Shown: positions 4,710 to 58,299 of the stretch, piece after piece
Position numbering within the stretch: the first letter of the stretch is position 1
How the letters are laid out: the number at the start of each line of letters is the position of its first letter
Assembly: GCA_026125385.1 (NCBI GenBank)
Contig: JAHCLG010000004.1
Coordinates: 29,782 to 93,781 of the forward strand
Origin: Legionellales bacterium
Lineage (GTDB): Bacteria > Pseudomonadota > Gammaproteobacteria > JAHCLG01
Direction of reading: 5' to 3'
Length of the DNA: 64,000 nucleotides
Translations under genes and position numbers: made by a program
Notes under the pieces: generated by a model
What the model was told of the DNA's origin: nothing
What the model saw: the letters and a program-made list of their open reading frames with translations, nothing else
Databases searched by the model: none

Positions 4710-7303
4710 GATCGTGTCCTATGATTTGTAAAAATATCGTTGTAACCAGGAATTTCTGAGGCTAACAAAGAATTGCTTCCCTGATTACCCACTCCACCAA
4801 TGCCTTTTAACATGATTTGGAAATAAATCCGCTTATCGTAAATGCCTTGGTGAAATTGATTAAAGCCCGTAAATTGACGACCCGTCACAACTCGCGCTGC
4901 CCAACAGCAGGTGTCGTATTGTAACCCATAATAAAAACTTTTTGCATTGGCAGAATTCAAGATATTTTCATTTGAGATTAAGCCTAACATGCTGATTTTG
5001 GGCGTAACATACCAATTTGCACCTAAATTCAATAAATTGGCCGAACCTGCTAAGGTAGTTTGATTATTACTGGTGAGTCTCACTGAACGCGTATAGGTGT
5101 AATTGAGGTAAATATCGTAGTATTGGCGATGATGCGAGGACAGCGTGACGGAGCTATCGGTAAAATGGTGTTGATAAGGGTCCCAGGCAATATCGCTGCT
5201 TAATTCCCAATCTTGAATTAAGCTAAAGGTAATTTTACCGACAATGGGTGAGAAGGCTTTGGTGTAATCATAATTGCTGATGAATAAACATTGATCCGTC
5301 GCACAATTATTAATAGTGACTAAGCGATGCTGGAAATAACGAATTTGACCAATACTCACGCGCATTTTTTCGATACCATTATCGCCATTTAAAAATCGCG
5401 AGGTTACGCCGTAAGCGATTTGATTAGCATCGCCAATGCGATCAAATCCAGAAAAGCGATTGTTTCTGAATAATTGATCGTAAGTTAAGGTTTGCAACAA
5501 ACTATCGAATACTGGAATGGTATTTTGATTTTTATAAGGCACATATAAATAATGTAAACGTGGTTCTAATGTTTGAGTAAAGTTTTGGGTCAATAATGAT
5601 AAATTTCGTTGCAAGACCAAACCACTGTCGATGGAAAAAATAGGTAATGTGCGATCTATTTTGGTTTGTGGCCATGTAGGGCTATTGAATAAATCGTATT
5701 GAGTCGCATCCAGTGATAATTGCGGCGTAATGTGTCCTGCTAAAGACGCTACGGGATAACTGAATGTCGGTTGGACATGCCAGCGATAGGCATCGGCATA
5801 AGCAAAACCTGGCGATAAATCCGGTGTTAAATAGTGAGTGGTGTTAGGGTCTATGCCAAAACTGTGGGTAAAACGCACGGCTTGGGAATCTAAGGAAAAA
5901 TTAGCGCCCATAATAGGAAAAGGGGCGACATAATTAGCATCGAATTGCGGTAAACGCGCGTACTGATTAAGAAATACCGGATAGTTAACGGGATGTAATG
6001 TTTGATAGTGTTGTAAAAGTCCTGCTAAAAACCAATCATCACTTTTATATTGAATATAAGCTTGTTGCAATAATTGATTTTGATAATCGGTATTGAAAGC
6101 CGTATTATCGAAATCTTGAAAAAAATAATCATCACTAACGTGATTAAAATCCAATATTGCCGAAACATGACGATTTATTGTAGAGTCTTGATGCCACGAA
6201 ATATAACGACGATCGTGACTAAGTTTTTCTAAATGATTTAATTGGTCAGGTCGCAAGGATGGATATTCACTGGGCAATTTAGCTAAAAATTGGCTGAAAG
6301 CGCGATCGTTGTGAATAAATCCGAGATTTAAATAACCCGTGCTAGATTGAGTTAAATAACGTGTTTGGGTATCCCAAAATATTCCGCGCTTAGTATAAAT
6401 ATTTGGTGTGAGGGTAAAATCGAGATTGGGCATTAAATTAAAATAAATCGGTAACGCCATATTCATTCCCGATTGCGAAGAATAATGAAAGCTGGGATAC
6501 AAAATGCCGGTTTTTCGACGTTTATCAATAGGGAAATTAATATAAGGCAAATACATCACCGGAATATTTTTTAAATACAGCCAAGAATGAGTGGCAACAC
6601 CTCGTCCAGTAGTGCGATTTAACGTTAAGTGTTGTGCTTGCATATGCCAAGAAGTATTTAAGGGGCTACAGGTGCTAAAGCTGGCATTTTTTAAGATAAT
6701 TAATCCTGGATTGACCTGATGGATTAAATAGGCCTTGCCCCAGGCACTAAGCCCCACAATTTTTTGTTGTTGAGGGCTTATTGCTTGTAGATTAGCAGTT
6801 TGATCTAAAGCAAGATGGTAAATACCTTGATGAAAATGCGCTTCTTTAGTATTTAAAATAACTTCTGCCGATTCACCCCGTAACAATCGCCCTGGCGTGC
6901 GTAATATCACATGGCCGCGTAAATGAATGAGATTAATTTTATGCGTTGTGGGATCGCGAATTAATTCTGCTTCATCGGCGGTGATGCGTCGCCCAGGTTC
7001 ACTGACAATAGCGTGTTGTAAAATAGAAGTGCCTTCTTCGGAAAATAAGACTGGCCCAAGTCCTGTGACTTGAATTTTTCCTGCGGCTAAGGGTTCTGTT
7101 GATTGAGGTGCTATGCTTAAATTAGGTTCTTGATAATATCCCTCACACAAATTGCTTTTAACGGCCGGTGTCCAACCCAACAATTGCGCTATCTTTTTAC
7201 TAGCGGTTTGGGTATCCTTGGGAGCAGCAAATAGGGTGGGGATGAGCGCTATGATCATCGCACTGATCCCGAGAAAAATTCGGTGGAAACCGCTTCGTCG
7301 CAT
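4706..7303 (-). CDS. lptD: LPS-assembly outer-membrane protein LptD
   Basis: 865 aa with signal peptide and the LptD/OstA N-domain plus a large beta-barrel. lptD-surA synteny. Confidence 0.9.
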   Translation of the reverse strand: MRRSGFHRIFLGISAMIIALIPTLFAAPKDTQTASKKIAQLLGWTPAVKSNLCEGYYQEPNLSIAPQSTEPLAAGKIQVTGLGPVLFSEEGTSILQHAIVSEPGRRITADEAELIRDPTTHKINLIHLRGHVILRTPGRLLRGESAEVILNTKEAHFHQGIYHLALDQTANLQAISPQQQKIVGLSAWGKAYLIHQVNPGLIILKNASFSTCSPLNTSWHMQAQHLTLNRTTGRGVATHSWLYLKNIPVMYLPYINFPIDKRRKTGILYPSFHYSSQSGMNMALPIYFNLMPNLDFTLTPNIYTKRGIFWDTQTRYLTQSSTGYLNLGFIHNDRAFSQFLAKLPSEYPSLRPDQLNHLEKLSHDRRYISWHQDSTINRHVSAILDFNHVSDDYFFQDFDNTAFNTDYQNQLLQQAYIQYKSDDWFLAGLLQHYQTLHPVNYPVFLNQYARLPQFDANYVAPFPIMGANFSLDSQAVRFTHSFGIDPNTTHYLTPDLSPGFAYADAYRWHVQPTFSYPVASLAGHITPQLSLDATQYDLFNSPTWPQTKIDRTLPIFSIDSGLVLQRNLSLLTQNFTQTLEPRLHYLYVPYKNQNTIPVFDSLLQTLTYDQLFRNNRFSGFDRIGDANQIAYGVTSRFLNGDNGIEKMRVSIGQIRYFQHRLVTINNCATDQCLFISNYDYTKAFSPIVGKITFSLIQDWELSSDIAWDPYQHHFTDSSVTLSSHHRQYYDIYLNYTYTRSVRLTSNNQTTLAGSANLLNLGANWYVTPKISMLGLISNENILNSANAKSFYYGLQYDTCCWAARVVTGRQFTGFNQFHQGIYDKRIYFQIMLKGIGGVGNQGSNSLLASEIPGYNDIFTNHRTRS

Positions 7304-10720: not shown

Positions 10721-11362
10721 ATGGTGTCTCACCAAAGTTTTATTGATCGAATCATTTTGCGTGTCGATTCTGCATTGCGCACTTTAACGGCTAATTATCC
10801 AGCGAGTCAACGTTCTTGTCCTGATCAGGCGATTGCCGAAAAAGAGTTAACAGACAGCGAGCGCAAACTCAGCAAGGCCTTGATGCGGGTGAATCATGCG
10901 GGCGAAGTCAGTGCGCAAGCGTTGTATCAAGGTCAAGCACTCACCGCACGCGATCCGGAAATTCAACAAGCGTTAATGCAGTCGGCTCAAGAAGAGAACG
11001 AGCACCTTCATTGGTGTGAAAATCGTTTGCAAGCATTAAATGGGCGCACTAGCTATTTAAATCCGCTGTGGTATTTAGGGTCGTTTGGTCTGGGTATGGT
11101 GGCAGGTCTCGCTGGCGATAAATGGAGTTTGGGTTTTTTAGCGGAAACCGAAAAGCAAGTGGTCGAGCATTTAGAACATCATCTCGAAACAATCGCCAGT
11201 GCCGATGAAAAATCGCGGGCGATTTTACAACAAATGCAAGAAGACGAAGCCCACCACGCCAGTGTGGCGTTAACGTATGGTGCAGAAGAATTACCCTTAA
11301 TCATTAAAGATGTGATGAGAGTGATGTCGAAAATAATGACGACGACGGCGTATTGGATCTAA
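10721..11362 (+). CDS. coq7: demethoxyubiquinone hydroxylase Coq7 (di-iron)
   Basis: Collinear with Pseudomonas Coq7 (ID RFLLxADSALRTL, RVNHAGEVSAQALYQGQALTAR, EEEHLHWC, DEAHHA). The true start is the ATG at 10721 with a GAGG SD. The ORF-track N-terminal extension overlaps metX and is rejected. Confidence 0.85.
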   Translation: MVSHQSFIDRIILRVDSALRTLTANYPASQRSCPDQAIAEKELTDSERKLSKALMRVNHAGEVSAQALYQGQALTARDPEIQQALMQSAQEENEHLHWCENRLQALNGRTSYLNPLWYLGSFGLGMVAGLAGDKWSLGFLAETEKQVVEHLEHHLETIASADEKSRAILQQMQEDEAHHASVALTYGAEELPLIIKDVMRVMSKIMTTTAYWI

Positions 11363-11505
11363 GAGCCTGTTCAAAATTTCCAATCTTGGTCATAAACTGC
11401 CGATTTTCTGTGCTCCGGAGCTCATTTACTGACGTGTAAACTGCGCTCCGGTGCTCAAAAATCGGCAGTTTATGACCAAGATTGGAAATTTTGAACAGGC
11501 TCTAC
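11363..11505. repeat. about 145 bp near-perfect palindromic element (45 nt identical inverted arms GAGCCTGTTCAAAATTTCCAATCTTGGTCATAAACTGCCGATTTT), MITE-like; possible bidirectional terminator
   Basis: Arms read directly at 11363-11407 and 11461-11505. A solo copy of the arm terminus AAAATTTCCAATCTTGG is at 34231-34247. Confidence 0.75.
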
Positions 11506-11544
11506 GAACCGATTTAAACAGGCAGGTAGAACGATACCAGTGCG

Positions 11545-11940: not shown

Positions 11941-12107
11941 GGTAGAATTTTCCGTGAATAAAATTGCTTGAAAGTCTAGCACTTGTTATGATTTCTCTCA
12001 ATCGCTGAACGCTATTCAAGACAAGAATATTAGTTCGGCAATTAAGCCTAACGCTTAAGCGTGAAGAATTTATTTTTCATTTTCAATACGACAATTTCGA
12101 GGATGTT

Positions 12108-12776
12108 ATGATGGATCAAAATCAATTAAAACGCGCAGCAGCGCAAGCGGCATTAGCTTATTTACCGCGCGAAGGTGTGTTGGGTGTGGGAACAGGCACC
12201 ACCACGAATTATCTAATTGATTTATTAGCTCAACATAAGGGCACCATTGAAGCGGCGGTGGCCAGTTCCGAACAAACCGCGCAGCGATTAAAAGCCAGTG
12301 GAATTTCCGTGATTGAATTAGCGCATGCGCATGAAATTAGCGTTTATATCGATGGTGCGGATGAAGTAAACGAAGCGGGATTGTGTCTTAAAGGTGGCGG
12401 TGGTGCACTCACGCGCGAAAAAATTGTAGCAAGTTGCGCAAAACAATTTATTTGTATTGTCGATGACACGAAATTAGTGGATGTATTAGGAAAAAAACAT
12501 CCTGTCTCGATTGAAGTTCTACCCTTAGCGCGTTCTTTTGTTGCGCGCGAAATAGTGAAACTCGGTGGCGAACCGGAATATCGCGAAGGGTTTAAAACCG
12601 ATAATGGCAATATTATTCTAGATATTTATAATTTAAATTTAACCGATCCCTATACGTTAGAAGCAACCTTAAATCATATTCCTGGTGTGGTAGAGAATGG
12701 CATTTTCGTCAAACGGCGGGCGGATATAATTTTAGTAGCGGGTATGCAGGGGGTTAGGGAAATTAAGGTACGATAG
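12108..12776 (+). CDS. rpiA: ribose-5-phosphate isomerase A
   Basis: LKRAAAQAALAYL...VLGVGTGTT...DGADEV...KGGGGALTREKIV are classic RpiA motifs. Confidence 0.9.
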   Translation: MMDQNQLKRAAAQAALAYLPREGVLGVGTGTTTNYLIDLLAQHKGTIEAAVASSEQTAQRLKASGISVIELAHAHEISVYIDGADEVNEAGLCLKGGGGALTREKIVASCAKQFICIVDDTKLVDVLGKKHPVSIEVLPLARSFVAREIVKLGGEPEYREGFKTDNGNIILDIYNLNLTDPYTLEATLNHIPGVVENGIFVKRRADIILVAGMQGVREIKVR

Positions 12777-12803
12777 ATGGTTTGCTCTGAAGAAATCTAA
12801 TTT

Positions 12804-13751
12804 TTATGATTTCAAAACTGCACGGGGAGAAAGTAATTCTTCTCGTTCTTGCATCAATTTTAAAACCTCTTTTGTGCATTGTTCCGTTCTGCTGGGTGCT
12901 TTTTTACCGAAGAGGAAAGCAATAGGAGCGCTTGGTTTAGAAAATGCGTTAGGATAATAGCTTTGAGTAGTTAAAGTCGTGGCCTTAGTAGCATATTCAT
13001 TAGATTTTGTTAAGTTTTCTAAAAATGTGATTTTATTATTTTTAATTGTTATTTGATAATTATAAAATGGAATAAGGAAGTGTTTTTTTAGCCAAGAAAA
13101 GGGGTTGTAGAAATTTTCTGATAGCACTTTGCAATCTCTTATTTTTGTTTTGTATTCCTCAATTTCACTCTTTAATATTCTAATATGTTCTTGAGCCTTC
13201 TCCATAGCACTCAATTGCAACTGTTCATGCTGAGTTAAGCGTTTCGATAAATTATCATTTAATTTCTCTTGGCATAACCGATAATGTGGCTCAAAAGGAT
13301 CTGACCTATTGGTAGTTGTGGGCGCAGTTTCGCTCCGCGTTATTTTAAATTGAAAACTTTGATAAGGTCTTTCTATTAATTGATCACTAATATTAGTTTC
13401 CAGCTCACCGCGTAAATAAAATTGGTGTTTAACATTGTTAAGTTGATGAGTGTGCTTGCCATCTTGATCTAAAATTTTTTCAGCAAAAATCCTTTCTGAT
13501 AAAGTAATTCCATTGAACATATAATGAATATTAATCTCTTTATCAGGCATATTATTTTCAACGCTAATCCGAAAATCGGATGAATATTCGATTGACACTA
13601 GGTAAGTTTGGATTGTTGCAAGTAAGAATTTACCAGTGAGATAATAGTCATCTATAAAGGGATAACCGCTAAGCTGAATTCGTGAAAAATTTTCGTTGCT
13701 ATGTTTTGAATATTCACAACAAATTTCAGTTCCAGGATCTGAAAACGCCAT
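12804..13751 (-). CDS. hypothetical protein (315 aa, central coiled coil, acidic C-terminal stretch QEREELL); no recognisable domain
   Basis: Long ORF in an AT-rich islet, codon usage consistent with its neighbours. No motif I can name. Confidence 0.5.
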   Translation of the reverse strand: MAFSDPGTEICCEYSKHSNENFSRIQLSGYPFIDDYYLTGKFLLATIQTYLVSIEYSSDFRISVENNMPDKEINIHYMFNGITLSERIFAEKILDQDGKHTHQLNNVKHQFYLRGELETNISDQLIERPYQSFQFKITRSETAPTTTNRSDPFEPHYRLCQEKLNDNLSKRLTQHEQLQLSAMEKAQEHIRILKSEIEEYKTKIRDCKVLSENFYNPFSWLKKHFLIPFYNYQITIKNNKITFLENLTKSNEYATKATTLTTQSYYPNAFSKPSAPIAFLFGKKAPSRTEQCTKEVLKLMQEREELLSPRAVLKS

Positions 13752-13944
13752 TATATCACCTCTATACTTTTGTTATTCTGACCATTCATTATTCTTTACC
13801 TTTTTGGTAATTCTCTTATGTCATCTGTTAATTAGATTGTAACCGAACTGTTACAGCAAAGATAACTGGAAATCTGCGCTTGATCATATCAGCTTTTTCT
13901 TACAGTGGCATGTTTTTTGGTTAAGGTTGATACAGTTTTTCAGC

Positions 13945-14400
13945 TTAGATGGAAATAGAGGGCGTAGCGGGGGATAAGAGCTGAGTAAAGTGATTCATTA
14001 CTCGAGATCTCAACTCAGTACCACGAATTCTATTAATAATATTGACCAATATGGGAAGATTTTCAACTTTTGAAAAATCAATATCGGAAATCACTGACAA
14101 ATCCATTTTTGAGGTTTGCATGATTTCTCTGCGAAAGTCGTTTAACGATTGATTAATGGCATCGGCACGATGAGGCTGCTGGATATATAACTGTGGTAAT
14201 AGCGATTGAAATTGTTTGGCTGCGTGGATTGGCAGCACGTTAATTGAAAAGAGTTCATTGTTTATAAATTCTAGGAAGGGATTTAAGTCGACTAAGGAGG
14301 TTTTTTTCTCTTCATGAACAGGACGACGACTTTCTTTGCGGTTAAAAAAGCCAAATAAGTTAATTTTAGATTGCGTTTTAATTTCAGTTTCAATCGACAT
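13945..14400 (-). CDS. hypothetical protein (151 aa)
   Basis: ORF in the same AT-rich islet. No recognisable domain. Confidence 0.4.
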   Translation of the reverse strand: MSIETEIKTQSKINLFGFFNRKESRRPVHEEKKTSLVDLNPFLEFINNELFSINVLPIHAAKQFQSLLPQLYIQQPHRADAINQSLNDFRREIMQTSKMDLSVISDIDFSKVENLPILVNIINRIRGTELRSRVMNHFTQLLSPATPSISI

Positions 14401-14637
14401 AATGGTATTACTTTATTCTCAACAAGTTATAATTAGCGCTAATTCCTTTAGCCCATACTGTTTATTTTACTATAAAAACCTTAAGGTTATATTAAAAATT
14501 GGCAGAATTTTTATGGATCATCCTTAAGTTCTCGTGATGTTCTCCTTTAATGAGATCATATTACCTGATCGGGAAGAAGAGTCAAGGCCAAATAAATGGT
14601 TGCATTTATTATAACTAGTCATAATAGGAAAGATGTC

Positions 14638-14772
14638 ATGACTACCCAAGCAAAGGCGATTCGAGAAGATATACTCCATGCCGTTAATAAACACCCTCAT
14701 GATTTAGTAACCAATACTATGCAAAAGTTTAACGTGACACGTACCACGGTATTGCGTTACATCCATCATTAG
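14638..14772 (+). pseudogene. possible remnant of an HTH regulator (44 aa: ...HDLVTNTMQKFNVTRTTVLRYI); the same frame continues after two stop codons
   Basis: Short ORF with a helix-turn-helix-like pattern 245 bp upstream of ATPase-1. Two in-frame stops (tag taa) are followed by about 37 more sense codons. Weak. Confidence 0.2.
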
Positions 14773-15016
14773 TAAAAGCAGATATTCCGTATTTATCAGC
14801 GCGAAAATCCTCAACTGACGATTACCCATATTAATGCTAATAGCGATATTGTATTCATGATTAAACGCACACTAGCCACTTATTTTTAATATTATATATA
14901 AAAATCAATGAATTATATAAAGCAAGCTCATCCGTCGCACCGTAATGTTGGTTACCGTGCTTGCGCACCTAAAAGTGTGGTGTATAATCATGGTAACGAA
15001 ATCAATGGTGTAACCA

Positions 15017-16138
15017 ATGAATACAAACTATTTCACAACGAAAGTCGCTACTAAGTTAACTTTTTGTAATCGCCAGAACGAAACTAAAGTTCTAGCCAGT
15101 AATATTCATAAAAATCAGCATACCGTAGTGGTGGCGCCGCGCCGCTATGGAAAAACTAGTCTCGTGGAACAGACATTGTTGCAAATGGGACTGTTATATA
15201 CCAGGGTTGATTTATTTTGTGTGGTGTATGAAGAAGATATTTGTCGGAAAATAGCTAAGAGTTTGTCGAAAGTGATCCGCGAAATGGTTACCTTTTCCGA
15301 GCAAGCAGTTCGTTTAGTAGAACAATGTTTTAAATCTGCCTCAATTGGAATTAAAGCGGGAGCAATAGAAATTAAAGTAGAATTTGGAAAAACCAATAAT
15401 GCTATTAGCCAGTTAGAAGATTTATTAGAAGGAATAGAGCATCTGGCACAAAAAAAAAATAGAGCGGTGGTGATATTTTTTGATGAATTTCAAGATGTAT
15501 TAAAAGCAGATGATACAAACAAAATACAAGCCACTATCCGAGCTGTAGCACAACATTCTAAATACGTGACTTATGTTTTTTCAGGCAGTTCGAGAATGAT
15601 GTTGAATAAAATTTTCGATGATAAAAAACAACCATTGTATATGCTTTGCAATAAAATTATCTTGGAAAGAATTAGTTCTGAACATTTTCATCAACATATT
15701 AAAAATGCGGCACAAAAAAAATGGCATATTGAGTTAAAAGATGAAATCATAGATGAAATTTTAATGATCACAGAGTGTCATCCTTATTATGTCAATTTTT
15801 TATGCGATAAATTATGGGATTTCGACATGGCTCCGTCATTGGCACAAATAACCCAATGTTGGGATCAGGCCTTGCTTGAAAATAAAGGAAAAATTATTGC
15901 CGATCTCGAACATCTTAATACTAATAGGACAAAGGTTCTTACTGTGATTGCATTACTGGGTATAGTTAGCGAACCGAATAGCAAAATTTTCTTAGATCAA
16001 GTGAAATTACCACTCTCCAGCACGCAAAATGCTGTGCAATATTTATTAAATCATGATTATCTCTACGAAACCAAGGACGGGCTAAAATTAATAGATCCTT
16101 TGATGAGAAAATTTATTGCAGATAGATATCTCAATTAG
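15017..16138 (+). CDS. orphan Orc1/Cdc6-type ('archaeal ATPase' PF01637-like) AAA+ ATPase, paralog 1
   Basis: Walker A APRRYGKTSL and Walker B VVIFFDEFQ. No C-terminal DUF234. Confidence 0.7.
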   Translation: MNTNYFTTKVATKLTFCNRQNETKVLASNIHKNQHTVVVAPRRYGKTSLVEQTLLQMGLLYTRVDLFCVVYEEDICRKIAKSLSKVIREMVTFSEQAVRLVEQCFKSASIGIKAGAIEIKVEFGKTNNAISQLEDLLEGIEHLAQKKNRAVVIFFDEFQDVLKADDTNKIQATIRAVAQHSKYVTYVFSGSSRMMLNKIFDDKKQPLYMLCNKIILERISSEHFHQHIKNAAQKKWHIELKDEIIDEILMITECHPYYVNFLCDKLWDFDMAPSLAQITQCWDQALLENKGKIIADLEHLNTNRTKVLTVIALLGIVSEPNSKIFLDQVKLPLSSTQNAVQYLLNHDYLYETKDGLKLIDPLMRKFIADRYLN

Positions 16139-16216
16139 TTTTAAACTTAGCAACAAAGCCTAAAATTCAAGTGTGAAGAGTATAGGTTGAAAATCCAGTC
16201 GTATTGAGTCTAGAGT

Positions 16217-19200
16217 TCATAATAATATGCGTTCAATCCCACCCCGATTCACCTTGGCAATGAAATTCTCTTGCCAATGTTCACCCAATAACTGCGCGAT
16301 TAATTCCACAATAATGTAATCTGTGGTGATCCCGGTGCTGGATTGATAATTGCTTAAGCCTTTTACGCAAGCAGGGCAGGTGGTTAAAAGTTTAATATTA
16401 TTATTCACCACTTTATTTTCCCCGGATAATTCACGTATGCCTTTGCTAATTTCCTGCTCTTTACGAAAACGCAATTGATGAGCAATATCAGGGCGAGACA
16501 TGGCTAAGGTTCCGGCATCTCCACAACAACGCTTAGAGGGTAAAATAGGTTGTTGCATTAAGGTTTCAGCAATTTTTAAGGGTTCATAATGTTTAATTGG
16601 TGAATGACACGGGTCATGATATAAATATTGAGTTGATGCAGAAGGTTTAATTTTTACATTTTTTTCAAATAAATATTCATGAATATCCATAATTCGACAA
16701 CCCGGAAAAATTTTATCGAATTGATAATCTTGTAATTGATCGTGACAGGTTCCGCATGAAACAATCACGGTTTTAATATCTAAATAATTGAGGGTATTAG
16801 CAACGCGATGAAATAATACTCGATTACGTGTGCTAATTTCCGTACCTTTTTGCGCATCACCTTCAGCTTTTTGCGGATAGCCACAACACAAATAACCCGG
16901 TGGTAACACCGTAATGATACCTAAATCAAAAAGCATAGCCAAAGTAGCCAAAGCCACTTGACTGAATAAACGCTCAGAACCACATCCAGGAAAATAAAAT
17001 ACCGCTTCGTTTTCTGCAGTTATTTGACTAGGATCGCGTAATAAGGGAATAAATTCTTCATTTTCAATGGTTAATAATTGGCGAATGGGTTTTAATTGCA
17101 TGGAATTCACTAAGGGCTTGCGCATAAAGTGAATAACTTGTTCACGCACAGGCGTTTTTCCAGTGGTAGCTTTTGGTAATGGCTGCTCGTGTAAAAATGG
17201 TTTAATAAATTGATGAATTAAACGTTGCACACGACTGCCCCAATTTAAAAATAATTGCCGCTGCAATTTAATATTCATAGGATTTTGAGCATTTAAATAC
17301 ATCATCGCTAAACGCGTGCCAAGCTTTGGGCGGCGTTGTTGGCGTTGGCGTAAAATTTGGCGCATGCGAATAGAAACATCGCCAAAATCAATATTTACCG
17401 GACAAGGTGCTAAACAATGGTGACAGGTCGTACAATGATCTGCAATATCATTTAAGGCGTCGAAATGTTGTAACGAAATGCCGCGCCGCGTTTGTTCTTC
17501 ATACAAAAATGCTTCGATAATCGCACCTGTCGCTAAAATTTTATCGCGAGGTGAATAAAGTAAATTAGCGCGCGGAATATGGGTTTGACATTTAGGTTTA
17601 CATTTTCCACAACGCAAGCAATCTTTAATAGCTAGATTTAATTCGCCTAATTCGCTGGCTTTTAAAATTAAGGCTTCTTGTTCTAATAAGCTAAAAGAAG
17701 GAGTAAAGGCACGATCTAAAGCATAAACATCTAATAATTTATCGCGATTAAATAAGTGGGTTGGATCGATTTTATTCTTATATTCTGCAAAATGATAAAT
17801 TGCTTGATTACTGACAAAGGGTAACTTAGTAATTCCAATTCCATGCTCACCAGAGATCACCCCATCTAATTCAATCACCTTGCTCATAATGCGTTTTACA
17901 ATTTTTTCTGCGCTATTTAACATGTCATAATCATTCGAATGAACAGGAATATTGGTATGAACATTACCATCGCCTGCATGCATGTGAAGCGCAATAATAA
18001 TTCTGGATTTTCTTATTTGTTGGTGAATGGTATCGAGTTGATTACGTATCGTTAAATAGAGATCACCGGTAAAAATATATTTTAACGGCTTTTCGATGGC
18101 TTCGCGATAGGAGATACGAATGGCATGACGCTGTAATAATTCAAATAATGACTGGCTACCCGAAGTTTCGATGTCTTTAGGTAATAATTTTTTAATATTT
18201 TTTAAAGGACGAGTTAAGTGATCTAAATAGTGTTGCCATAGTTCTTGCGTTCGTGACAATACTTCTTGAGCCGCTGCAATTTTTTGCTGGAGAATATGTT
18301 GAGATTCTTCGTCCTGATTATTGACTAATTTTTTTAAATAATAAGTGACGGCATTAATAATATGCATTTTATTAATAATGGATTGCTCAATATTAATTTG
18401 CTCAATAAAATTACTGTATGCGGTTAAATGATTCAGTGGAATAACCACGTCTTCATTAATTTTAAAAGCATTAGTATGAGCAGCAATCGCCGCAGTTTTC
18501 GATCGATCAAGCCAAAAGCGCGCACGGGCTTGTGCGCTGATGGCAATAAAACCTTCACCATCGCGACGATTGGCAATTTTCACTACGTCAGAAGCCATTT
18601 TTGCTAGAGCATCTTCATCGTCACTGACTAAATCACCAATTAAAATCATTTTGGGTGATCCATTGCGTGAGGCTTTAGTTGAATAACGCACGGCCTTAAT
18701 GTAGCGCTGGTCTAAATGTTCTAATCCTGCCAATAATACAGTTTTTTGATGTTCTAAAAATTCTTTGATTTCAATAATTGAAGAGACAGCCTGACTTAAA
18801 TCATGGCCAAAAAATTCTAAACAAAAGGTACGAATAAAGGCAGGCTGTCGATGTAAAATAAACGTTGCTGAAGTAATAATGCCATCACAACCTTCTTTTT
18901 GAATACCAGGAATGCCAAATAAACATTTATCGGTAACATCTTTGCCCAAACCAGCTTTACGCAATTCTTTTCCAGGTATCGTTATAATTTCAGGTTCTGC
19001 TAAGAGTTTATGATGATGTCCATCACGACGAGTTAAGCGAAATTTCACGGTTTCTTGTAAATGAATTTTTCCAAAATTATGATTTACTCTTTCAACGATA
19101 AGCCAATTACCATCAGCCGTCACCATTTTCCAGCTTGCTAAATTATCAAGTGCCGTACCCCACAATACCGCTTTTTTGCCACCGGCATTCATTGCAATAT

Positions 19201-20017
19201 TACCGCCAATTGTACTAGCATCTTGTGACGTGGGATCAACGGCGAATACGCAGTGATGCTGGGATGCTAACTCAGAAACTCGCCTCGTGACGACTCCCGC
19301 CTCAGCTGTCACCGTTGCCATTGCAGTTTCACACCCTGGCAATATTTGTTGGTGAATGGCGGATAATTTTTCCAATTTTTCTAAATTAATTACTGCAGTA
19401 AAAGGGTGTAGTGGAATGACTCCGCCAGTATAACCCGTGCCACCCCCTCGAGGAATAATGATTAAATTTAATTCATGGCAGGTTTTGACTAATAAGGGAA
19501 TTTCATCCTCTCGATCGGGTTTTAACACCACAAAGGGATATTCGATGCGCCAATCGGACGCATCGGTGGCATGAGAAACTCGCGATAAACCATCAAAACA
19601 AATAGTATCGTGACGTAAAATTTTACTTAAACGTTTTTTGATAATCTTACGTAAATGTCGTTGTTGTTGAAAATGAGTGGCAAAGCGGGCAACAGCTTCT
19701 CGACATTGCTGGACTAATTCGAGCGTCAGTGTATTATTTTCAGCGCGTTGAATAATTTGATCTAGGCGATGATGTAAAGCATGATATAATGATTTCCAAC
19801 GTTTTGGATGTGTTAATAAATCATCCTGAATAAAGGGATTGCGCGTAATTACCCACATATCACCCAATACTTCAAACAACATCCGTGCCGAGCGTCCCGT
19901 TTTTTGTTCATTGCGTAGTTGATTAATGGTTTCCCAAGCATGACTATCGAGAAACCGCACGACAATTTCGCGATCGGTAAAGGAAGTATAATTGTAAGGT
20001 ATTTCGCGTAAACGCAT
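16217..20017 (-). CDS. DUF3683-type giant flavoprotein: FAD-linked (GlcD-like) oxidase fused to GlcF-like 4Fe-4S/CCG domains (YdiJ-like 2-hydroxyacid dehydrogenase)
   Basis: 1266 aa with N-terminal extension, FAD-binding [11 protein letters not shown], ferredoxin Cys clusters ([23 protein letters not shown]) and two CCG cysteine-rich domains. Confidence 0.8.
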
Positions 20018-21524: not shown

Positions 21525-22943
21525 TTGAAACGTTTTTTTAGTTTAATAATAATATGTTGTTGGATTACCGCGGTATTCAGCATAAATTTAGGTACATTAA
21601 CCTTGCGTGATGTCGTAATGTTGGCTTTGCGCAACAATCCGCAGGTGCAGAGTTCAGAACTCAATCGTGTTAACGATAAATATAAAGTTGCTCTGGCGTA
21701 TTATCAGTTTCAACCGCAGTATTCCTTGCAAGGTTCAACATCGTATCAAGATACCAAAAATGCAGGTGTAAAATCGTATTCTAAAAACTCCACCTTAAAT
21801 CCCGCGGTTTCAATTAATAGCCCGTTAGGAACAAATTATAATATCAGCATGAATAATAATTATGTTAATAATTATAATCCGGTGGTCACCGCGACTATCA
21901 CCCAACCTCTGCTGCAAGGTTTTGGCACAGATGTAGTTTTAAATGATTTTTTTACCACGTTGGAAAATGAAAAAATTAATCGTATGGGTTTTCGCGATAC
22001 CATCACGCAAACCATCGTTGATACGGTAAATTTATATAATCAATTAATCTCAGCCCAGCGCAGTTATAAAATTCAACAATTGCAACTAAAAGAATCGGTA
22101 AAATCTGCTGAAGATACGCAAAAATATATTAAAGCAGGAACAAAATCCAACATGGATTATATTCAGGCACAATCGCAAGTGGCCAATGGCCAGTTGAGTT
22201 TAATCAGCAGTCAAAACAGTATTCAACAAGCCAAAATTGCCTTATTACAAGAATTAGGTTTAGAACCCGATACACAGTTTAATATTGTGAATAATTATAC
22301 GCTGCCTGCGCTAAAAATTCCCAGTCAAGAACAAGCCATTCACATGGCACTCGCTTATAATAATAGTTATCAAAGTTTAATTATTCAGCGTAAAGCGTTA
22401 GAACGCGCTTTAATTATTGCGAAAGATGCTGAACGGTGGAAATTAGATTTAAAAGCCACGGCAACTACAGGATCTGCTTCGGGCAGTGGCCCTAATGCTG
22501 GCTTTCGTTCGCTGTTTAATGGCTTAAATAATTCCCGATCTATCGAATTAGATTTAACGGTACCGCTCGATCCTTTGCAATTACGCGCGAATATCGTTAG
22601 TGCCAAAATTGCCTTAGAAGAAAATACGATTAATATTGCTAATACCAAGCGCTCCGTAATTTCGCAAGTGATTAACGCCTATCGCGATTTAGATATTAAT
22701 AAACGGCAAATTGATTTGGCAATCAATGCTGAAAAACTGCAACAACAAGTATTAGATAATTCACTAAAACAAAATAAATTTGGTCGCGTTTCGCAGTTTG
22801 AGGTTAATTCGAATCGGCAACAATTAATTCAAGCACAATTAAATGTAGTAACGGCAGAAAATAATTATTCCAATAGTTTGGAAACATTTAGTCAATTAAT
22901 TGGGGTTAGTTTACAACGTTGGGGATTGAGGTTGCGATATTAA
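21525..22943 (+). CDS. TolC-family outer-membrane efflux protein
   Basis: Signal peptide, LTLRDVVMLALRNNPQV start and two repeated OEP halves. First gene of the OMP-MFP-ABC efflux operon. Confidence 0.8.
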   Translation: MKRFFSLIIICCWITAVFSINLGTLTLRDVVMLALRNNPQVQSSELNRVNDKYKVALAYYQFQPQYSLQGSTSYQDTKNAGVKSYSKNSTLNPAVSINSPLGTNYNISMNNNYVNNYNPVVTATITQPLLQGFGTDVVLNDFFTTLENEKINRMGFRDTITQTIVDTVNLYNQLISAQRSYKIQQLQLKESVKSAEDTQKYIKAGTKSNMDYIQAQSQVANGQLSLISSQNSIQQAKIALLQELGLEPDTQFNIVNNYTLPALKIPSQEQAIHMALAYNNSYQSLIIQRKALERALIIAKDAERWKLDLKATATTGSASGSGPNAGFRSLFNGLNNSRSIELDLTVPLDPLQLRANIVSAKIALEENTINIANTKRSVISQVINAYRDLDINKRQIDLAINAEKLQQQVLDNSLKQNKFGRVSQFEVNSNRQQLIQAQLNVVTAENNYSNSLETFSQLIGVSLQRWGLRLRY

Positions 22944-24121
22944 TGATTACGATTAAAAAAACAGTATGGATGCTTATTTTTTTCAGTCTTGGCTTAACGG
23001 CGTGCTCTTCACCTAATAAAACCAAGAGTATAAGCACAAATATTTATACAGTCAGTGCTCGCGATCAAGTAACGCCTTTGTATTTTACAGGAACAATAGC
23101 ACCCTTAGAAATTGTTAATATTGCTTCACCTGTGGATGGAAATGTTAAAAAACTATATTTTCGATATGGCGAGCGTGTTAAAAAAAATCAAGAATTATTA
23201 TTATTGCAATCTGATAAACTCATGACAGACTATCAAACGGCACTTACTTCATTTTTAGAAGCCAAAGATAAATATTTAGCAAGCAAAGTGCAAATGGAAG
23301 GTACGGAAGAGTTATATCAGGCAGGATTGATTCCAAGAAATGATTATCAAAATGATAAAAGTAATTTAGCTGACAATTATTTGTCGTATACTCAGGCCGA
23401 AAATAAATTAAAAAGCATTTTAAAAAATGCCAAGGGATTTTTAAACGAAGATGCAGATATTACGCAATTAAATTTGGAAGATGAAGCAGAAGTACAAAAA
23501 GCATTAAATGTAAAATTAAACGAGCTTTCTATTCAAGCCAGTAATTATGGAATAATTTTAATGCCAATTAAAGAGGGCGGCAGTAGTAGCGATGATTCAG
23601 CAAAAATATTACGCGAAGGTAGCCAAGTAAAACAAGGACAAACGTTAGTGTCACTGGGCGATTTTAGCGGCTTATCGATTAATATTAATGTCAATGAAAT
23701 TAATATTAATGCCATTAAACCAGGACAGGCGGTGAAAGTAACGGGTGTTGCTTTCCCTGATATTACCCTCGATGGTAAAGTCATGAGCATTGATGTGCAG
23801 GCTGCCGCCGCAGAAAATGGCGGAGGATTACCCACATTTCCAGTAACTATTGTTGTGCCTCACTTAACACCACAGCAACAAGAAACCATTCACATCGGCA
23901 TGAGTGCGAAGGTCGAATTATTTATTCAAAATGGCAAACAAATTATGATCCCGATTAAAGCGATTGTAGAAAAAAATGGCCAGAGTTATGTGCAATTGGT
24001 TACCAGTGAAAATCCGTTAAAAACGCAAGAAGTCTTAGTGCAAACAGGACAGCCCGAAATAAACGATGTAGTGATAAAACAAGGCTTAAAAGTAGGAGAT
24101 AAAATTCTTGTTAACCATTGA
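22943..24121 (+). CDS. HlyD/MacA-family periplasmic adaptor (membrane-fusion) lipoprotein
   Basis: Lipobox LGLTAC, biotinyl-lipoyl plus coiled-coil hairpin plus beta-barrel organisation. The ATG at 22943 overlaps the TolC stop (TAATG). Confidence 0.75.
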   Translation: MITIKKTVWMLIFFSLGLTACSSPNKTKSISTNIYTVSARDQVTPLYFTGTIAPLEIVNIASPVDGNVKKLYFRYGERVKKNQELLLLQSDKLMTDYQTALTSFLEAKDKYLASKVQMEGTEELYQAGLIPRNDYQNDKSNLADNYLSYTQAENKLKSILKNAKGFLNEDADITQLNLEDEAEVQKALNVKLNELSIQASNYGIILMPIKEGGSSSDDSAKILREGSQVKQGQTLVSLGDFSGLSININVNEININAIKPGQAVKVTGVAFPDITLDGKVMSIDVQAAAAENGGGLPTFPVTIVVPHLTPQQQETIHIGMSAKVELFIQNGKQIMIPIKAIVEKNGQSYVQLVTSENPLKTQEVLVQTGQPEINDVVIKQGLKVGDKILVNH

Positions 24122-25994: not shown

Positions 25995-26160
25995 TAATAT
26001 CAAACGCACCAAAATGAGAAAATGCATTTTAGTGCGCCACATTTAGAGACATTAGTGACGCACCAAAGTGAGAAAACACATTTGGGTGCGTTTAATTCAG
26101 CCTTATTTATAACGCACCAAATCGAGAAAATGCATTTTAGTGCGTTTACATCCATGGTAT
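25995..26160. repeat. three tandem copies of a near-palindromic about 32 nt motif CGCACCAAAnTGAGAAAAyrCATTTnrGTGCG
   Basis: Copies are readable at 26003-26036, 26059-26092 and 26111-26144. Each can form a hairpin (CGCAC-CAAAATG / CATTTTAGTGCG). The third copy overlaps the GTG at 26140 used by the ORF track as the ATPase-2 start. Confidence 0.7.
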
Positions 26161-27633
26161 AGTAAACGCAGCAAATGGTGTGGGAGATTAGACGTGGATA
26201 GCATTTTCATTGGCAGACAAGCAGAACTCAAGGATTTACAACAACTTAACCGGCGTAAGGTCGCAAATTTAGTCATCATCCAGGGACGACGGCGGATTGG
26301 TAAAAGTCGCCTGATTGCTGAATTCGCTAAGGGGCAAACGTTTTATTGTTTCACTGGCATGGCGCCTAGTCCCGATACCACACCACAGATGCAACTCGAC
26401 GAATTCGCCAGGCAATATGCTGAGCAGTTTCATTTGCCACGCTTTTTGATGAACGATTGGGGAGACCTTTTTACTTTGTTATATAAGTCAGTGGCTAATG
26501 ACAAAGTAGTCATTTTATTTGATGAGATTTCCTGGATGGGATCACTAGATCCTACTTTTCTCGCTAAATTAAAAAATGCTTGGGATACGCAATTTAAAAA
26601 AAATCCTAAATTGATGTTGGTATTATGTGGTTCGGTTTCATCTTGGATTGAAAAAAATATTATTAGCAGTACGTTATTTCTAGGGCGTCCTTCACTTTAT
26701 ATGAAGCTTAATGAGCTTTCATTGCCAGAATGTAACGAATTTTGGAAAGGAGTTAAACATAAAGTAACTGCCTATGAAAAATTTAAATTATTAGCAGTGA
26801 CTGGAGGTGTTCCAAGATATTTAGAATTGATCGATCCTCATCTGACTGCAGAAGAAAATATCAGACATCTATGTTTTACACCCAATGCGCCACTCGTGGA
26901 TGAATTTGAGCGCATTTTCTCCGACATTTTTGGAAATCGTAGTGAAATGTATAAAAAAATTATTCAAAGACTGGTGATTGGTCAAGCAACGTTAGATGAA
27001 ATATTAGCAAGTTGCGGAAGAGAAAAAACGGGAGATTTTAGTGAATATTTAAATGATTTAGAATTAGCAGGATTTGTAGCACGGGATTTTACTTGGCATT
27101 TAAAAAATGGTAAGCAATCAAAATTGAGCCATTATCGGCTTAAAGACAATTATGTTCGGTTTTATTTGAAATACCTAGAACCCAATAAAGCGAAAATTAA
27201 TAAGGGACTTTTTAGAAAGCAATCAGTAACTTCCTTACCCGCTTGGGAAAGTATTATGGGTTTACAATTTCAAAATCTTATTTTAAATAATGATCTCGGA
27301 ATCATTCAAAAGTTAGCTATACCGTTTGAAGATGTGGTTTTTGTTAATCCTTTTTTTCAGCGAAAAACGAAACAGCAAGCAGGATGTCAAATTGATTTAT
27401 TGATCCAAACCAAATTTAATTGTGCCTTTGTGTGTGAGATCAAATTTCATAAGTCAGAACTAAATACTTCAATTATTAATGAAGTGGATGAAAAAATTAA
27501 GAAATTAAAACTACCCAAAAATTTTTCGTATCGCCCCGTCCTAATCCATGTCAATGGCATTCGAGATGCGCTGAAAGAAGAAGGTTATTTTTCCAATATT
27601 ATTGATTTCGGAGAGATTCTCCTCGGTAATTGA
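26140..27633 (+). CDS. orphan AAA+ ATPase (PF01637-like) with a C-terminal DUF234-like domain, paralog 2
   Basis: Walker A GRRRIGKSRL and Walker B VILFDEISW. No in-frame ATG precedes Walker A. The start is GTG at 26140 or, more plausibly, GTG at 26194 (GGAGA SD 6 nt upstream). Confidence 0.7.
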   Translation: MRLHPWYSKRSKWCGRLDVDSIFIGRQAELKDLQQLNRRKVANLVIIQGRRRIGKSRLIAEFAKGQTFYCFTGMAPSPDTTPQMQLDEFARQYAEQFHLPRFLMNDWGDLFTLLYKSVANDKVVILFDEISWMGSLDPTFLAKLKNAWDTQFKKNPKLMLVLCGSVSSWIEKNIISSTLFLGRPSLYMKLNELSLPECNEFWKGVKHKVTAYEKFKLLAVTGGVPRYLELIDPHLTAEENIRHLCFTPNAPLVDEFERIFSDIFGNRSEMYKKIIQRLVIGQATLDEILASCGREKTGDFSEYLNDLELAGFVARDFTWHLKNGKQSKLSHYRLKDNYVRFYLKYLEPNKAKINKGLFRKQSVTSLPAWESIMGLQFQNLILNNDLGIIQKLAIPFEDVVFVNPFFQRKTKQQAGCQIDLLIQTKFNCAFVCEIKFHKSELNTSIINEVDEKIKKLKLPKNFSYRPVLIHVNGIRDALKEEGYFSNIIDFGEILLGN

Positions 27634-46957: not shown

Positions 46958-46969
46958 AAAGTTTAGAGG

Positions 46970-47012
46970 TTGTTGGGTTGAGGAGCACCGAAACCCAACA
47001 GCTTTATGCGCA
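46970..47012 (+). terminator. hairpin GTTGGGTT-(12 nt)-AACCCAAC downstream of folC
   Basis: Read at 46972-47000. No strong T-run follows, so the call is weak. Confidence 0.3.
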
Positions 47013-47168
47013 AATATCTGATACCCATTGCTCTAATATTCAATAACTTCCACACCCAAGCAAAGAAAACCCGTATCGTGAATTGTCATGGTTATATTAT
47101 CTATTCTTGCTTGATTTGTAACCACATTGTAGCATATAATTTACTATATACTATGGGAGTTTAAACAT

Positions 47169-47426
47169 ATGAAAAACAGTATTGTTAGGGCGCGTGTCAA
47201 CCAAGATTTAAAACAAGATGTTGATCATATTTTAGGAGATCTCGGTCTCACCATGTCCGACGCCATCAATGCCTTATTTAAGCAAATCAAATTACATAAT
47301 GGTTTACCCTTTGAAATTAAAGTGCCAAATAAGGTCACTCATAAAACATTACAAGAAAGTGCTAAAGGGAAAAATCTAAAATCATTTAATTCTATAAACG
47401 ATTTATTTAATGACTTGGAAAATTGA
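47169..47426 (+). CDS. dinJ: DinJ/RelB-family type II antitoxin
   Basis: Collinear with E. coli DinJ (VRARVNQDLKQDVDHILGDLGLTMSDAIN...LPFEIKVPN). Confidence 0.85.
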   Translation: MKNSIVRARVNQDLKQDVDHILGDLGLTMSDAINALFKQIKLHNGLPFEIKVPNKVTHKTLQESAKGKNLKSFNSINDLFNDLEN

Positions 47427-47431
47427 TTACG

Positions 47432-47701
47432 ATGCGGATTATTGAGCGTTCTAATCAGTTTAAAAAGGATTTTAAAAAAATAGTCAAACGGGGGAAAAAT
47501 ATCGAAAAAATAAAAACAGTAATTCAATTGCTAAGCTATGGCGAAAAACTTGCTGAGAAATATCGAGATCATTTTCTTGTTGGTCAATATAAAAATACTC
47601 GCGAGTGTCATATTGAGCCGGATTGGCTGCTGATTTATGTGCTAACTGAAACTACGTTGCGACTTGAGCGGACAGGGACGCATGCAGATTTATTTAATTA
47701 G
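47432..47701 (+). CDS. yafQ: YafQ/RelE-family type II toxin (mRNA interferase)
   Basis: Strong match to E. coli YafQ (HIEPDWLLIYVLTE...LRLERTGTHADLF). The ATG at 47432 is 5 nt after the dinJ stop. Confidence 0.85.
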   Translation: MRIIERSNQFKKDFKKIVKRGKNIEKIKTVIQLLSYGEKLAEKYRDHFLVGQYKNTRECHIEPDWLLIYVLTETTLRLERTGTHADLFN

Positions 47702-47955
47702 ATTAAGAGATAACGGGTTTTTTAATTTTAACTTCTCGGTAGTCATCTGCATATTGGCAACGCCTCATCACGCGCCTCATCAAGCATTTTTCAGGTGTTT
47801 TTATTTTTTATTTAAAAAATATGCATATGAAACATAAGCCAACAGATTACACCTGCTAGTAACTTTTTCCCTCATATTTCCAGTATGCTTGACTAACTCT
47901 TAATGTCATCCTCTTTGTTAAGATAATAATTAAATTATTGGCAAGGAGATTTTTT

Positions 47956-49143: not shown

Positions 49144-49225
49144 ACAGGTTAACCTACATAAAAAACTCGCACTAAAGATTTGCTAATGTTATCCTTTTGC
49201 CAAGTTAACCCCATAGGACAATTCT

Positions 49226-57817: not shown

Positions 57818-58299
57818 TGAATTTATTGAAACAACGTTGGCAAGCTTATAATTCACGTGAGCAATTGTTTTTATTGCTTGGCACTATCGCCATTGTATTG
57901 TTTAGTGGCTATTCATTATTACTATCGCCACTTTATCATCATCTTGAAACGTTAAAAAAATCTTTAACTGAACAACAACAATTATTGGCTTGGATGCAAG
58001 CAAAACAACCTTTATTAAACGTTAAACAGCAGGCAATTACTCGCGAAAAAATATCAACGGATGAATTATTGACTCGATTGAGTCAACTCTTTACCCAGGA
58101 ACGATTTAACGCGCAATTAAGTGCAGAAGAAAATGGTCAAATTAAAATAATATTTAAAACGATAAGTTTTGATCGTTTTATCGACTGGCTAACTAAGCTG
58201 GATCAAAAAATTTATTTTAAAATAATAAATTTAAATATCCAACGATTGGATCATCCTGGAATGGTGGATATTGAGTTAGAACTGGCGACTTCAACCTGA
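57814..58299 (+). CDS. gspM: type II secretion protein GspM
   Basis: 161 aa, N-terminal TM, last gene of the operon. Confidence 0.7.
   Translation: MMNLLKQRWQAYNSREQLFLLLGTIAIVLFSGYSLLLSPLYHHLETLKKSLTEQQQLLAWMQAKQPLLNVKQQAITREKISTDELLTRLSQLFTQERFNAQLSAEENGQIKIIFKTISFDRFIDWLTKLDQKIYFKIINLNIQRLDHPGMVDIELELATST

Follow-up and report, generated by a model that had tools for sequence, protein, structure and literature searches.

We analysed a 64,000-nucleotide stretch of contig JAHCLG010000004.1 (assembly GCA_026125385.1, forward strand, positions 29,782 to 93,781; hereafter the window) from the metagenome-assembled genome (MAG) of an uncultured Legionellales bacterium. Our subject is an AT-rich islet of 3,440 bases (12777-16216), which lies between rpiA and a gene for a DUF3683 oxidoreductase and holds a AAA+ ATPase gene, two open reading frames (ORFs A and B) and a short helix-turn-helix (HTH)-like ORF. 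The original prediction, made from the sequence alone, had described a laterally acquired islet with the layout of a defence or addiction module and, equally, of secreted-effector cargo. We favor a different reading, to which we assign a probability of roughly 0.6: the interval is a composite, situated in a variable gap between two convergent conserved genes, and it consists of three functionally unlinked pieces. In this lineage, the gap would have been filled with an ATPase cassette, two orphan genes and an HTH-like stump.

The ATPase is a solo gene in unrelated contexts

We searched for homologs of the ATPase (15017-16138, plus strand; 373 amino acids [aa], KIT27_02570, MCW5588527.1) and obtained 1486 matches, the best at 70% identity. 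The search missed the window protein itself, because MCW5588527.1 is misfiled: in the 90% clustering it stands under a 39-aa representative, a "glycine betaine ABC transporter" fragment. The matches include a tight orthogroup of proteins of ~373 aa and 45-70% identity, found in MAGs labelled Legionellales, Coxiellaceae, Francisellaceae and Gammaproteobacteria. Plasmids and two phage contigs carry more distant relatives (21-30% identity).

We fetched ten other ATPase contexts, seven of them with an ATPase 58-70% identical to that of the window (L174, 59%) and three more divergent (L169, 52%; L171, 46%; L173, 37%). The ATPase was solo in all ten, with no recurring neighbor. Its upstream and downstream neighbors are feoABC and two unknown ORFs (L001), FKBP and ShlB (L003), pyrG-DUF29-kdsA and eno-ftsB (L164), an acyl-CoA synthetase gene and gyrA (L165), 4HBT and msrAB (L166), a thiolase gene and hemD (L169), a giant ORF and MIP (L173), and glmU-glmS and pyrD (L174). 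In L167, ubiB lies upstream and a 577-aa ORF downstream, followed by SCP2 and ubiE, while L171 has small unknown ORFs on both sides. The upstream gene is co-directional with the ATPase and 44-165 nt from it in 7 of the 10 relatives. No relative of ORF A or B was present in any of the ten loci. We also considered whether the domain-less neighbors of the ATPase orthologs (442, 569, 577 and 420 aa, among others) might represent a conserved partner, and rejected this candidate: an all-versus-all BLASTP of these proteins gave nothing below E = 0.1, so that they are mutually unrelated by this measure.

In two of the loci, the ATPase interrupts a gene cluster. L164 has a widely conserved cluster in the form pyrG-kdsA-[ATPase]-eno-ftsB, and in L167 the ATPase and the 577-aa ORF together interrupt ubiE-SCP2-[577-aa ORF + ATPase]-ubiB. 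These interruptions suggest insertion rather than an ancestral position. The ATPase gene is AT-richer than its own flanks in six of seven genomes, and its low GC content is therefore a trait of the family and no sign of a recent arrival together with A and B. Between this MAG and a Coxiellaceae MAG, the ATPase is 58% identical and rpiA 51.5%.

These distributions bear directly on the defence or addiction module of the original prediction, in which the ATPase would sense an invader or the loss of a plasmid, with A and B as effector and partner, all co-acquired. Low GC and atypical codon usage in all three genes would fit such a module, as would weak matches of the ATPase family to PADLOC models (mad8, 1.5e-9; PDC-S01, in 31 of 33 members, best 2.4e-8), a sub-threshold nSTAND1 match and a match at 3e-13 to a PHROG of unknown function. 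However, A, B and the HTH-like ORF have no significant match in PADLOC, Pfam, NCBIfam or PHROGs, and the ATPase sits solo among housekeeping genes in ten contexts without a recurring partner. The genes of the islet lie on opposite strands with 616 nt between them, and the ATPase is 58-70% conserved in seven loci, unlike arms-race genes. MADS is an eight-gene operon, mad1-mad8 (bioRxiv 10.1101/2023.03.30.534895), and the other mad genes are absent here. The likeness to mad8 and PDC-S01 is a weak similarity in the P-loop region: the mad8 match reaches only 35.8 bits over residues 29-194 and, although the PDC-S01 profiles come close to the ATPase in length (375-412 positions), their best stretch covers only residues 23-57 of the window ATPase. 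Unlike those candidate defence ATPases, the orthogroup has housekeeping neighbors and no known defence phenotype. As a type II toxin-antitoxin pair, A (315 aa) and B (151 aa) also fail to match any toxin or antitoxin model, and a genuine pair elsewhere in the window (relB/dinJ-yafQ, 47169-47701) looks quite different. We therefore regard a defence or addiction module as highly improbable: the ATPase is solo in ten contexts, and A and B have no homologs in our searches, so that no co-occurrence with the ATPase exists.

The toxin-antitoxin pair itself lies in another AT-rich islet (46958-49200, GC ~0.31-0.32), after folC. A relB/dinJ-like ORF of 85 aa (47169-47426) overlaps the YafQ gene (47423-47701; 6e-34) by 4 nt, and yafQ is followed by a domain-less ORF of 401 aa (47938-49143) with a Ser/Thr/Pro/Lys-rich tail.

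The islet is compositionally distinct and lies in a variable gap

The islet is flanked on the left by rpiA (12108-12776, plus strand; PF06026, 6e-56) and on the right by the convergent oxidoreductase gene (16217-20017, minus strand), in which Pfam identifies DUF3683, FAD-binding, 4Fe-4S and CCG domains. ORF A (12804-13751; 315 aa, KIT27_02560) and ORF B (13945-14400; 151 aa, KIT27_02565) lie 193 nt apart on the minus strand. The plus strand carries the HTH-like ORF (14638-14886), a dyad-symmetric element of ~85 nt (14935-15016) and, immediately behind it, the ATPase gene, which is thus on the opposite strand from A and B and 616 nt away. The ORF positions given in the original prediction agree with these coordinates. 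KIT27_02560, KIT27_02565 and KIT27_02570 are all annotated as hypothetical by NCBI, in keeping with its description of the three proteins as uncharacterised.

The compositional break that had been proposed is real. Cut into non-overlapping 3.44-kb segments, the window has a GC content of 0.394 ± 0.017, as compared with 0.339 for the islet (z = -3.3). This is the lowest value among the segments, the next minimum being 0.356; smaller dips in GC also occur at 22-23.7 kb and 46.5-49.4 kb. By gene, GC is 0.327 for A (0.259 at third codon positions), 0.364 for B and 0.340 for the ATPase, versus 0.433 for rpiA and 0.381 for the oxidoreductase gene, so the islet is indeed AT-richer than its flanks. 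Codon-usage scores of the three islet genes (A, 0.01; B, 0.12; ATPase, 0.15) are 2-3 standard deviations under those of 50 other window genes (0.36 ± 0.11). We used the in-frame score only, as the frame-discrimination margin is inflated by stops in the other frames. Scans of the sequence for promoters and terminators gave site numbers no higher than in shuffles. The segment thus deviates in composition and is island-like in character.

We compared the rpiA/DUF3683 junction with that of two distant relatives (L004 and L006), in which an rpiA 55% identical to that of the window is also convergent to a DUF3683 gene. The gap measures ~330 bp in L006, where no gene is convincing, and 4.26 kb in L004, where it carries genes for a methyl-accepting chemotaxis protein, a FIST-domain protein and a histidine kinase. 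Since the convergent pair is common to these genomes and the contents of the gap differ, the adjacency predates the cargo, and the gap holds different things in different lineages. Relatives of the oxidoreductase (52-62% identical) are found in Gamma- and Betaproteobacteria.

Lateral acquisition of the islet, as originally proposed, is supported in part. The deviation in GC and codon usage speaks for it, and the junction differs among the distant genomes compared, but there is no tRNA in the window, no integrase among its ORFs and no convincing repeat. The sole flanking repeat is a 35-nt direct repeat of 74% identity (12038-12072 and 16150-16184), which may be due to chance; it brackets rpiA together with the islet, with one copy upstream of rpiA and the other just past the ATPase stop. 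A search of the islet DNA against plasmids and phages gave no match.

ORFs A and B are orphans

ORF A is a strict orphan: a word-indexed search of 5.8 billion clustered proteins and a full phmmer (HMMER) scan against 1.84 billion representatives each matched it only to itself. ORF B likewise matched only itself in the word-indexed search. Neither has a significant match in Pfam, NCBIfam, PADLOC or PHROGs, which bears out the absence of recognisable domains reported in the original prediction; housekeeping families, which would have spoken against an island, are not among their matches because A and B match no family. Both proteins appear to be soluble, with no hydrophobic or transmembrane segment and no signal peptide. 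ORF B is predicted to be all-helical and is basic, with an isoelectric point (pI) of 9.1. AlphaFold2 (AF2) single-sequence models were unusable overall, with a predicted local distance difference test score of 45 for A and 47 for B. The sole confident part (~70-77) is a long central helix of ORF A (residues 154-214), which looks coiled-coil-like in the model and is consistent with the coiled coil originally noticed in this protein. An inverted repeat, TGTAAC-N6-GTTACA, lies between the two ORFs (~13838-13856) and is possibly a coincidence.

We asked whether ORFs of this length could arise by chance. In shuffles of the islet, a stop-free run of at least 151 codons appeared in 0.5% of trials and one of at least 315 codons in 0 of 3000. 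Because these lengths exceed chance expectation, A and B are likely real or recently real genes. The opposing explanation is that ORF B has no function as a gene and is either decaying or spurious, that the same holds, with less likelihood, for ORF A, and that most of the islet is junk DNA separating convergent genes. Its proponents could point to the lack of homologs of A and B in our searches, codon scores (A, 0.01; B, 0.12) as low as those of random short ORFs of the same region, the weak Shine-Dalgarno (SD) sequence of ORF B, the truncated look of the adjacent HTH-like ORF and the low AF2 confidence for both proteins. Runs of 315 and 151 codons at 34% GC are nevertheless as rare as the shuffles indicate, ORF A has a strong SD (GAGGTGAT) at the proper distance before its ATG, and the NCBI pipeline called both genes. 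We consider it very unlikely that they are spurious. A and B would rather be species-restricted, young or fast-evolving lineage-specific genes on the minus strand.

As to function, A and B may come from the gene pool that supplies the type IVB effectors of Legionellales; secretion of the two would have orphan status and taxonomy as its support. A stronger version, that A and B are Dot/Icm effector cargo and the ATPase is an unrelated neighbor, is in our view unlikely, although it deserves some weight. The MAG is labelled Legionellales, and the type IVB secretion system is present in almost all members of this order, with effectors that are highly lineage-specific (PMC8896642). Like Dot/Icm substrates, A and B are orphan, AT-rich and soluble, lack a signal peptide or transmembrane segment, include one protein with a long coiled-coil-like helix and occupy a variable spot between core genes. 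Near its C-terminus, ORF A also carries a glutamate patch (-14 to -11, with E at positions -14, -12 and -11), which is followed by LLSP..VLKS with L/V at -3/-4. The patch sits much where the consensus signal FSSDDVLLEEEEEEEESSLLSSLKL has its E-block (PMC5802825). On the other hand, the tails are net basic rather than acidic and Glu-rich: the last 30 residues of ORF A hold 5 acidic and 6 basic residues (pI 8.6), contrary to the acidic C-terminus originally described, and the C-terminal tail of ORF B has a pI of 12. DotM bound only overall-acidic peptides and left Lem8, with balanced Lys and Glu, unbound (PMC5802825), which makes the E-block argument weak. Moreover, the window ORFs that we examined include no dot/icm genes, neither protein has a eukaryote-like domain, and the prior odds for any orphan gene are modest.

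The HTH-like ORF is a probable gene stump

The HTH-like ORF has a good SD and runs for 44 codons (14638-14772) to a TAG TAA, after which the same frame stays open for 36 more codons, to 14886. It is left unannotated by NCBI, whose locus tags run from 02565 to 02570. Its HTH matches are all below threshold (HTH_11, E = 0.012, 15.9 bits versus a cut-off of 25; HTH_DeoR; HTH_7), and tblastn against plasmids gave only a match at E = 10. Of the decayed HTH gene originally proposed, the ORF and its in-frame stops are therefore present, but its HTH identity falls short of significance. That it is the relic of a winged-helix gene of ~80 aa is plausible but unproven, and we take it to be, probably, the stump of such a gene. 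The presence of feoC 119 nt 5' of the ATPase in L001, the closest ortholog, prompted us to consider a decayed feoC; this candidate was rejected, as BLASTP gave no alignment.

The ATPase is a member of the PF01637 family

The original prediction had assigned the ATPase to the Orc1/Cdc6 type, with clean Walker A and B motifs and no partner domain. The motifs are present, and both Walker A (APRRYGKTS, P41-R-R-Y-G-K-T-S48) and Walker B (FFDEF, F154-x-D156-E157-F-Q) are invariant in 33 homologs. The family assignment has to be revised. The ATPase passes the gathering cut-off of PF01637 (ATPase_2) with 33.9 bits versus 33.2, and PF01637 is matched by 33 of 33 aligned homologs (best 1.1e-11). No Orc1/Cdc6 model in Pfam or NCBIfam matched at E up to 1, and the nearest Orc1-related match, to the replication factor C large subunit, reached 16.8 bits versus a cut-off of 280. 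A profile built from the alignment (A1) found 2fna in the Protein Data Bank at 2.8e-10 (residues 13-235) and 2qen at 5.7e-5, the latter with residues 16-369 on 14-348 of 350, including the C-terminal winged helix. This end-to-end alignment contradicts the absence of a partner domain. Faint winged-helix matches of the profile, to RPA32C and TubR, fall at 301-355.

The two structures, 2FNA (a Sulfolobus SSO1545-type hypothetical protein) and 2QEN (a Pyrococcus Walker-type ATPase), are solved members of PF01637 ("archaeal ATPase"). The window protein shares with this family the order of a AAA+ P-loop domain, a helical lid and a C-terminal winged helix, and it keeps the GK[ST] of Walker A and the DE of Walker B. 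It differs in that its orthogroup is bacterial and so far comes from Legionellales-type MAGs, is always solo and has a conserved dyad upstream. Invariant motifs in the alignment are N-terminal FCNR, PRRYGKxSL, FxDEFQ, GSxR, HxxYxN and C-terminal DP, of which FCNR, HPYYVN (at HxxYxN) and DP are extra to the family. By sequence, the ATPase adds a new member to an established family that, as a whole, has no known function. Membership consequently says little about its role. A second ATPase_2 protein of 497 aa is encoded in the window at 26140-27633 (PF01637, 1.4e-12). We rejected the idea that the two are recent paralogs, as they have no significant pairwise alignment; the second protein belongs to a separate subfamily.

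The Orc1/Cdc6 label is understandable at the superfamily level, since candidate initiators of Methanococcales match both Arch_ATPase and Cdc6 models (PMC4009838). The order of AAA+ domain and winged helix is shared with such initiators, and the AT-rich-centred dyad 5' of the gene is superficially reminiscent of orc1 beside an origin flanked by origin recognition boxes (ORB). The best solved relatives are nevertheless 2fna and 2qen, and the dyad, in contrast to such origins, is only ~85 nt long, abuts the start codon, contains a -10-like box and lacks ORB-like boxes. Nothing in its sequence suggests an origin function. Bacteria initiate replication with DnaA.

A conserved dyad accompanies the ATPase gene

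We aligned the DNA 5' of the ATPase starts and found ~85 nt that are kept despite the unrelated contexts. In the window, this element consists of GCACC (14937), GGTTACC (14950), GCACC (14965), a 9-nt AT-rich spacer (14970), GGTGT (14979), which runs into TATAAT (14983-14988), GGTAAC (14992) and GGTGT (15007), followed by the ATG (15017). Its halves are mirror images of each other. The dyad is clear in six loci; in L169 and L174 it is rearranged, and L167 and L171 keep it in a partly degenerate form. A recognisable upstream element accompanies the ATPase in 9 of the 10 other loci. L173 (37% identity) has three direct repeats of ATGTTACATAAA (4940-4990) instead of the GCACC/GGTWACC dyad. Positions T1, A2 and T6 of the -10-like box are kept in all orthologs examined except L173. 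In L165 and L174, the stop codon of the upstream gene is a few nt from the first GCACC box. A conserved 3' boundary of the ATPase cassette was sought and none was found.

The dyad is unique in the window by simple pattern searches, and a covariance model placed it only 5' of ATPase orthologs in 256 kb. Rfam has nothing at 14935-15016 (E up to 1) and nothing window-wide at gathering scores. Folded as RNA, the window dyad reaches -33.1 kcal/mol (z = -5.3), with z scores of -6.4 in L003, -4.7 in L166 and -3.0 in L165. Across six sequences, 76.5% of cells are paired and 9 pairs are changed on both sides; 0 of 500 shuffles reach the observed values, and slid controls give 25-45%. In part of the set, the ability to form a hairpin is retained and accompanied by compensatory changes. 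We also considered an attC-like dyad (integron RYYYAAC/GTTRRRY) and rejected it by inspection, as the GGTAAC and GTTACC boxes are off consensus. In L164, the leader is interrupted, between the start codon and its GGTAAC box, by an insert of ~85 nt (5927-6012). This insert is bounded by perfect inverted repeats of 17 nt (GTAACAGCTCAGTCCCC...GGGGACTGAGCTGTTAC) and has the look of a small mobile insertion of palindromic type.

As the dyad follows the ATPase gene from context to context, the simplest inference is that it serves to control this gene. The ATPase and its ~85-nt dyad leader/promoter would form a self-contained cassette, and the protein would be an ATP-dependent DNA-binding switch. Two versions of such control can be envisaged. 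In the first, the dyad would be an operator over the internal -10 box, bound by the ATPase's own winged helix, an arrangement that would account for the joint movement of site and gene. In the second, read-through transcripts would form a fold-back hairpin that masks their GGUG ribosome-binding region, leaving the internal promoter as the only source of translatable mRNA. The many G-U pairs on the sense strand of the dyad lean toward a role as RNA, while the central base of GGTWACC, which flips without compensation, leans toward recognition by a protein. DNA binding, autoregulation and insulation would each be compatible with the sequence.

Transposase genes of the IS10/IS50 type have fold-back protection against outside read-through, as known from the Tn10 literature. 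The ATPase resembles them in that it often lies co-directionally behind another gene, and in that its inverted repeat, situated around or behind an internal promoter, has a 3' arm over the ribosome-binding region; transcripts from the internal promoter would be the only translatable ones. The cassette, however, has neither a transposase nor terminal inverted repeats, and the hairpin is incomplete in L001 and L164; the proposed mechanism is drawn from sequence alone.

If such a cassette is mobile, two further explanations arise. The ATPase cassette alone might be a mobile single-gene immunity or selfish element (PDC-S01-like or STAND-like), with A and B as bystanders. Solo insertions inside conserved clusters in L164 and L167, an ATPase gene with more AT than its surroundings in 6 of 7 genomes, the upstream element that accompanies it in 9 of 10 other loci, the weak PDC-S01, mad8 and nSTAND1 similarity and the distant relatives on plasmids and in two phage contigs are all points in its favor. 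We find it improbable, because the protein has no effector domain besides AAA+ and the winged helix, the cassette lacks a transposase, integrase, terminal repeats and a conserved 3' boundary, the ATPase is conserved as highly as core genes, and the PADLOC matches are at the P-loop level, far short of full length. More speculatively, and as something of a long shot, the ATPase and its dyad could be an autonomous single-gene cassette, in which an ORC-like AAA+/winged-helix protein is paired with a recognition palindrome and an internal promoter of its own, and which has spread to many different sites in Legionellales-type chromosomes, perhaps as a new kind of selfish, immunity or chromosome-organising element; here, its landing site may have nucleated the orphan islet.

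Other features of the window

A near-perfect palindrome of 146 nt (11362-11507), with a perfect stem of at least 46 bp, separates the stops of a coq7-like gene and a glyoxalase gene. Folded as DNA, it reaches -71 kcal/mol (z = -18). It matches a plant microRNA model, MIR7807, on both strands and below the gathering score, is unique in the window and is absent from all fetched loci. It could be an insertion similar to a miniature inverted-repeat transposable element or a long bidirectional terminator. A gene for type II secretion protein M (57814-58299; PF04612, 3.6e-25) ends a co-directional run at ~49-58 kb, which is probably a gsp/lsp cluster. An OEP/HlyD efflux pair is located at 21525-24121.

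Discussion

We interpret the interval as a composite of an ATPase cassette, two orphan genes and an HTH-like stump that happen to share a variable gap. Several observations weigh against this interpretation. Our case that the ATPase is independent of A and B relies on how the ATPase behaves elsewhere, and the ATPase may have recruited A and B in this lineage specifically. For ORF B, the word-indexed search is the sole search behind its orphan status, and its ribosome-binding site is weak. Searches with the oxidoreductase (one genome per species; JGI metagenomes) reached 59-62% identity at best and found no close relative of this genome, so that the junction comparison is one at long evolutionary distance. 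The evidence for the dyad comes from 6-10 related sequences, a small sample: L001 (z = -1.4) and L164 (z = 0.5) are without the full hairpin, the dyads of L167, L171 and L174 are too divergent for the covariance model, and the -35 region is poor, with the promoter scan passing over this site.

On balance, we see in the islet the ordinary filling of a gap with lineage-specific genes, to which an ATPase cassette adds some modest interest. Its parts being unlinked, the islet is far less attractive as a candidate defence or addiction module. What it offers instead is a clean, small example of a variable gap, which is empty in one distant relative, filled with sensor genes in another and occupied by orphans here. 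As strict orphans of an uncultured Legionellales bacterium, A and B are candidates for effector translocation screens. The useful remainder is a conserved, uncharacterised and always-solo ATPase_2 orthogroup in MAGs of Legionellales, Coxiellaceae and Francisellaceae. If one feature merits a small experiment, it is the dyad, and an ATPase gene with its own probable binding site provides a simple experimental handle on this family.

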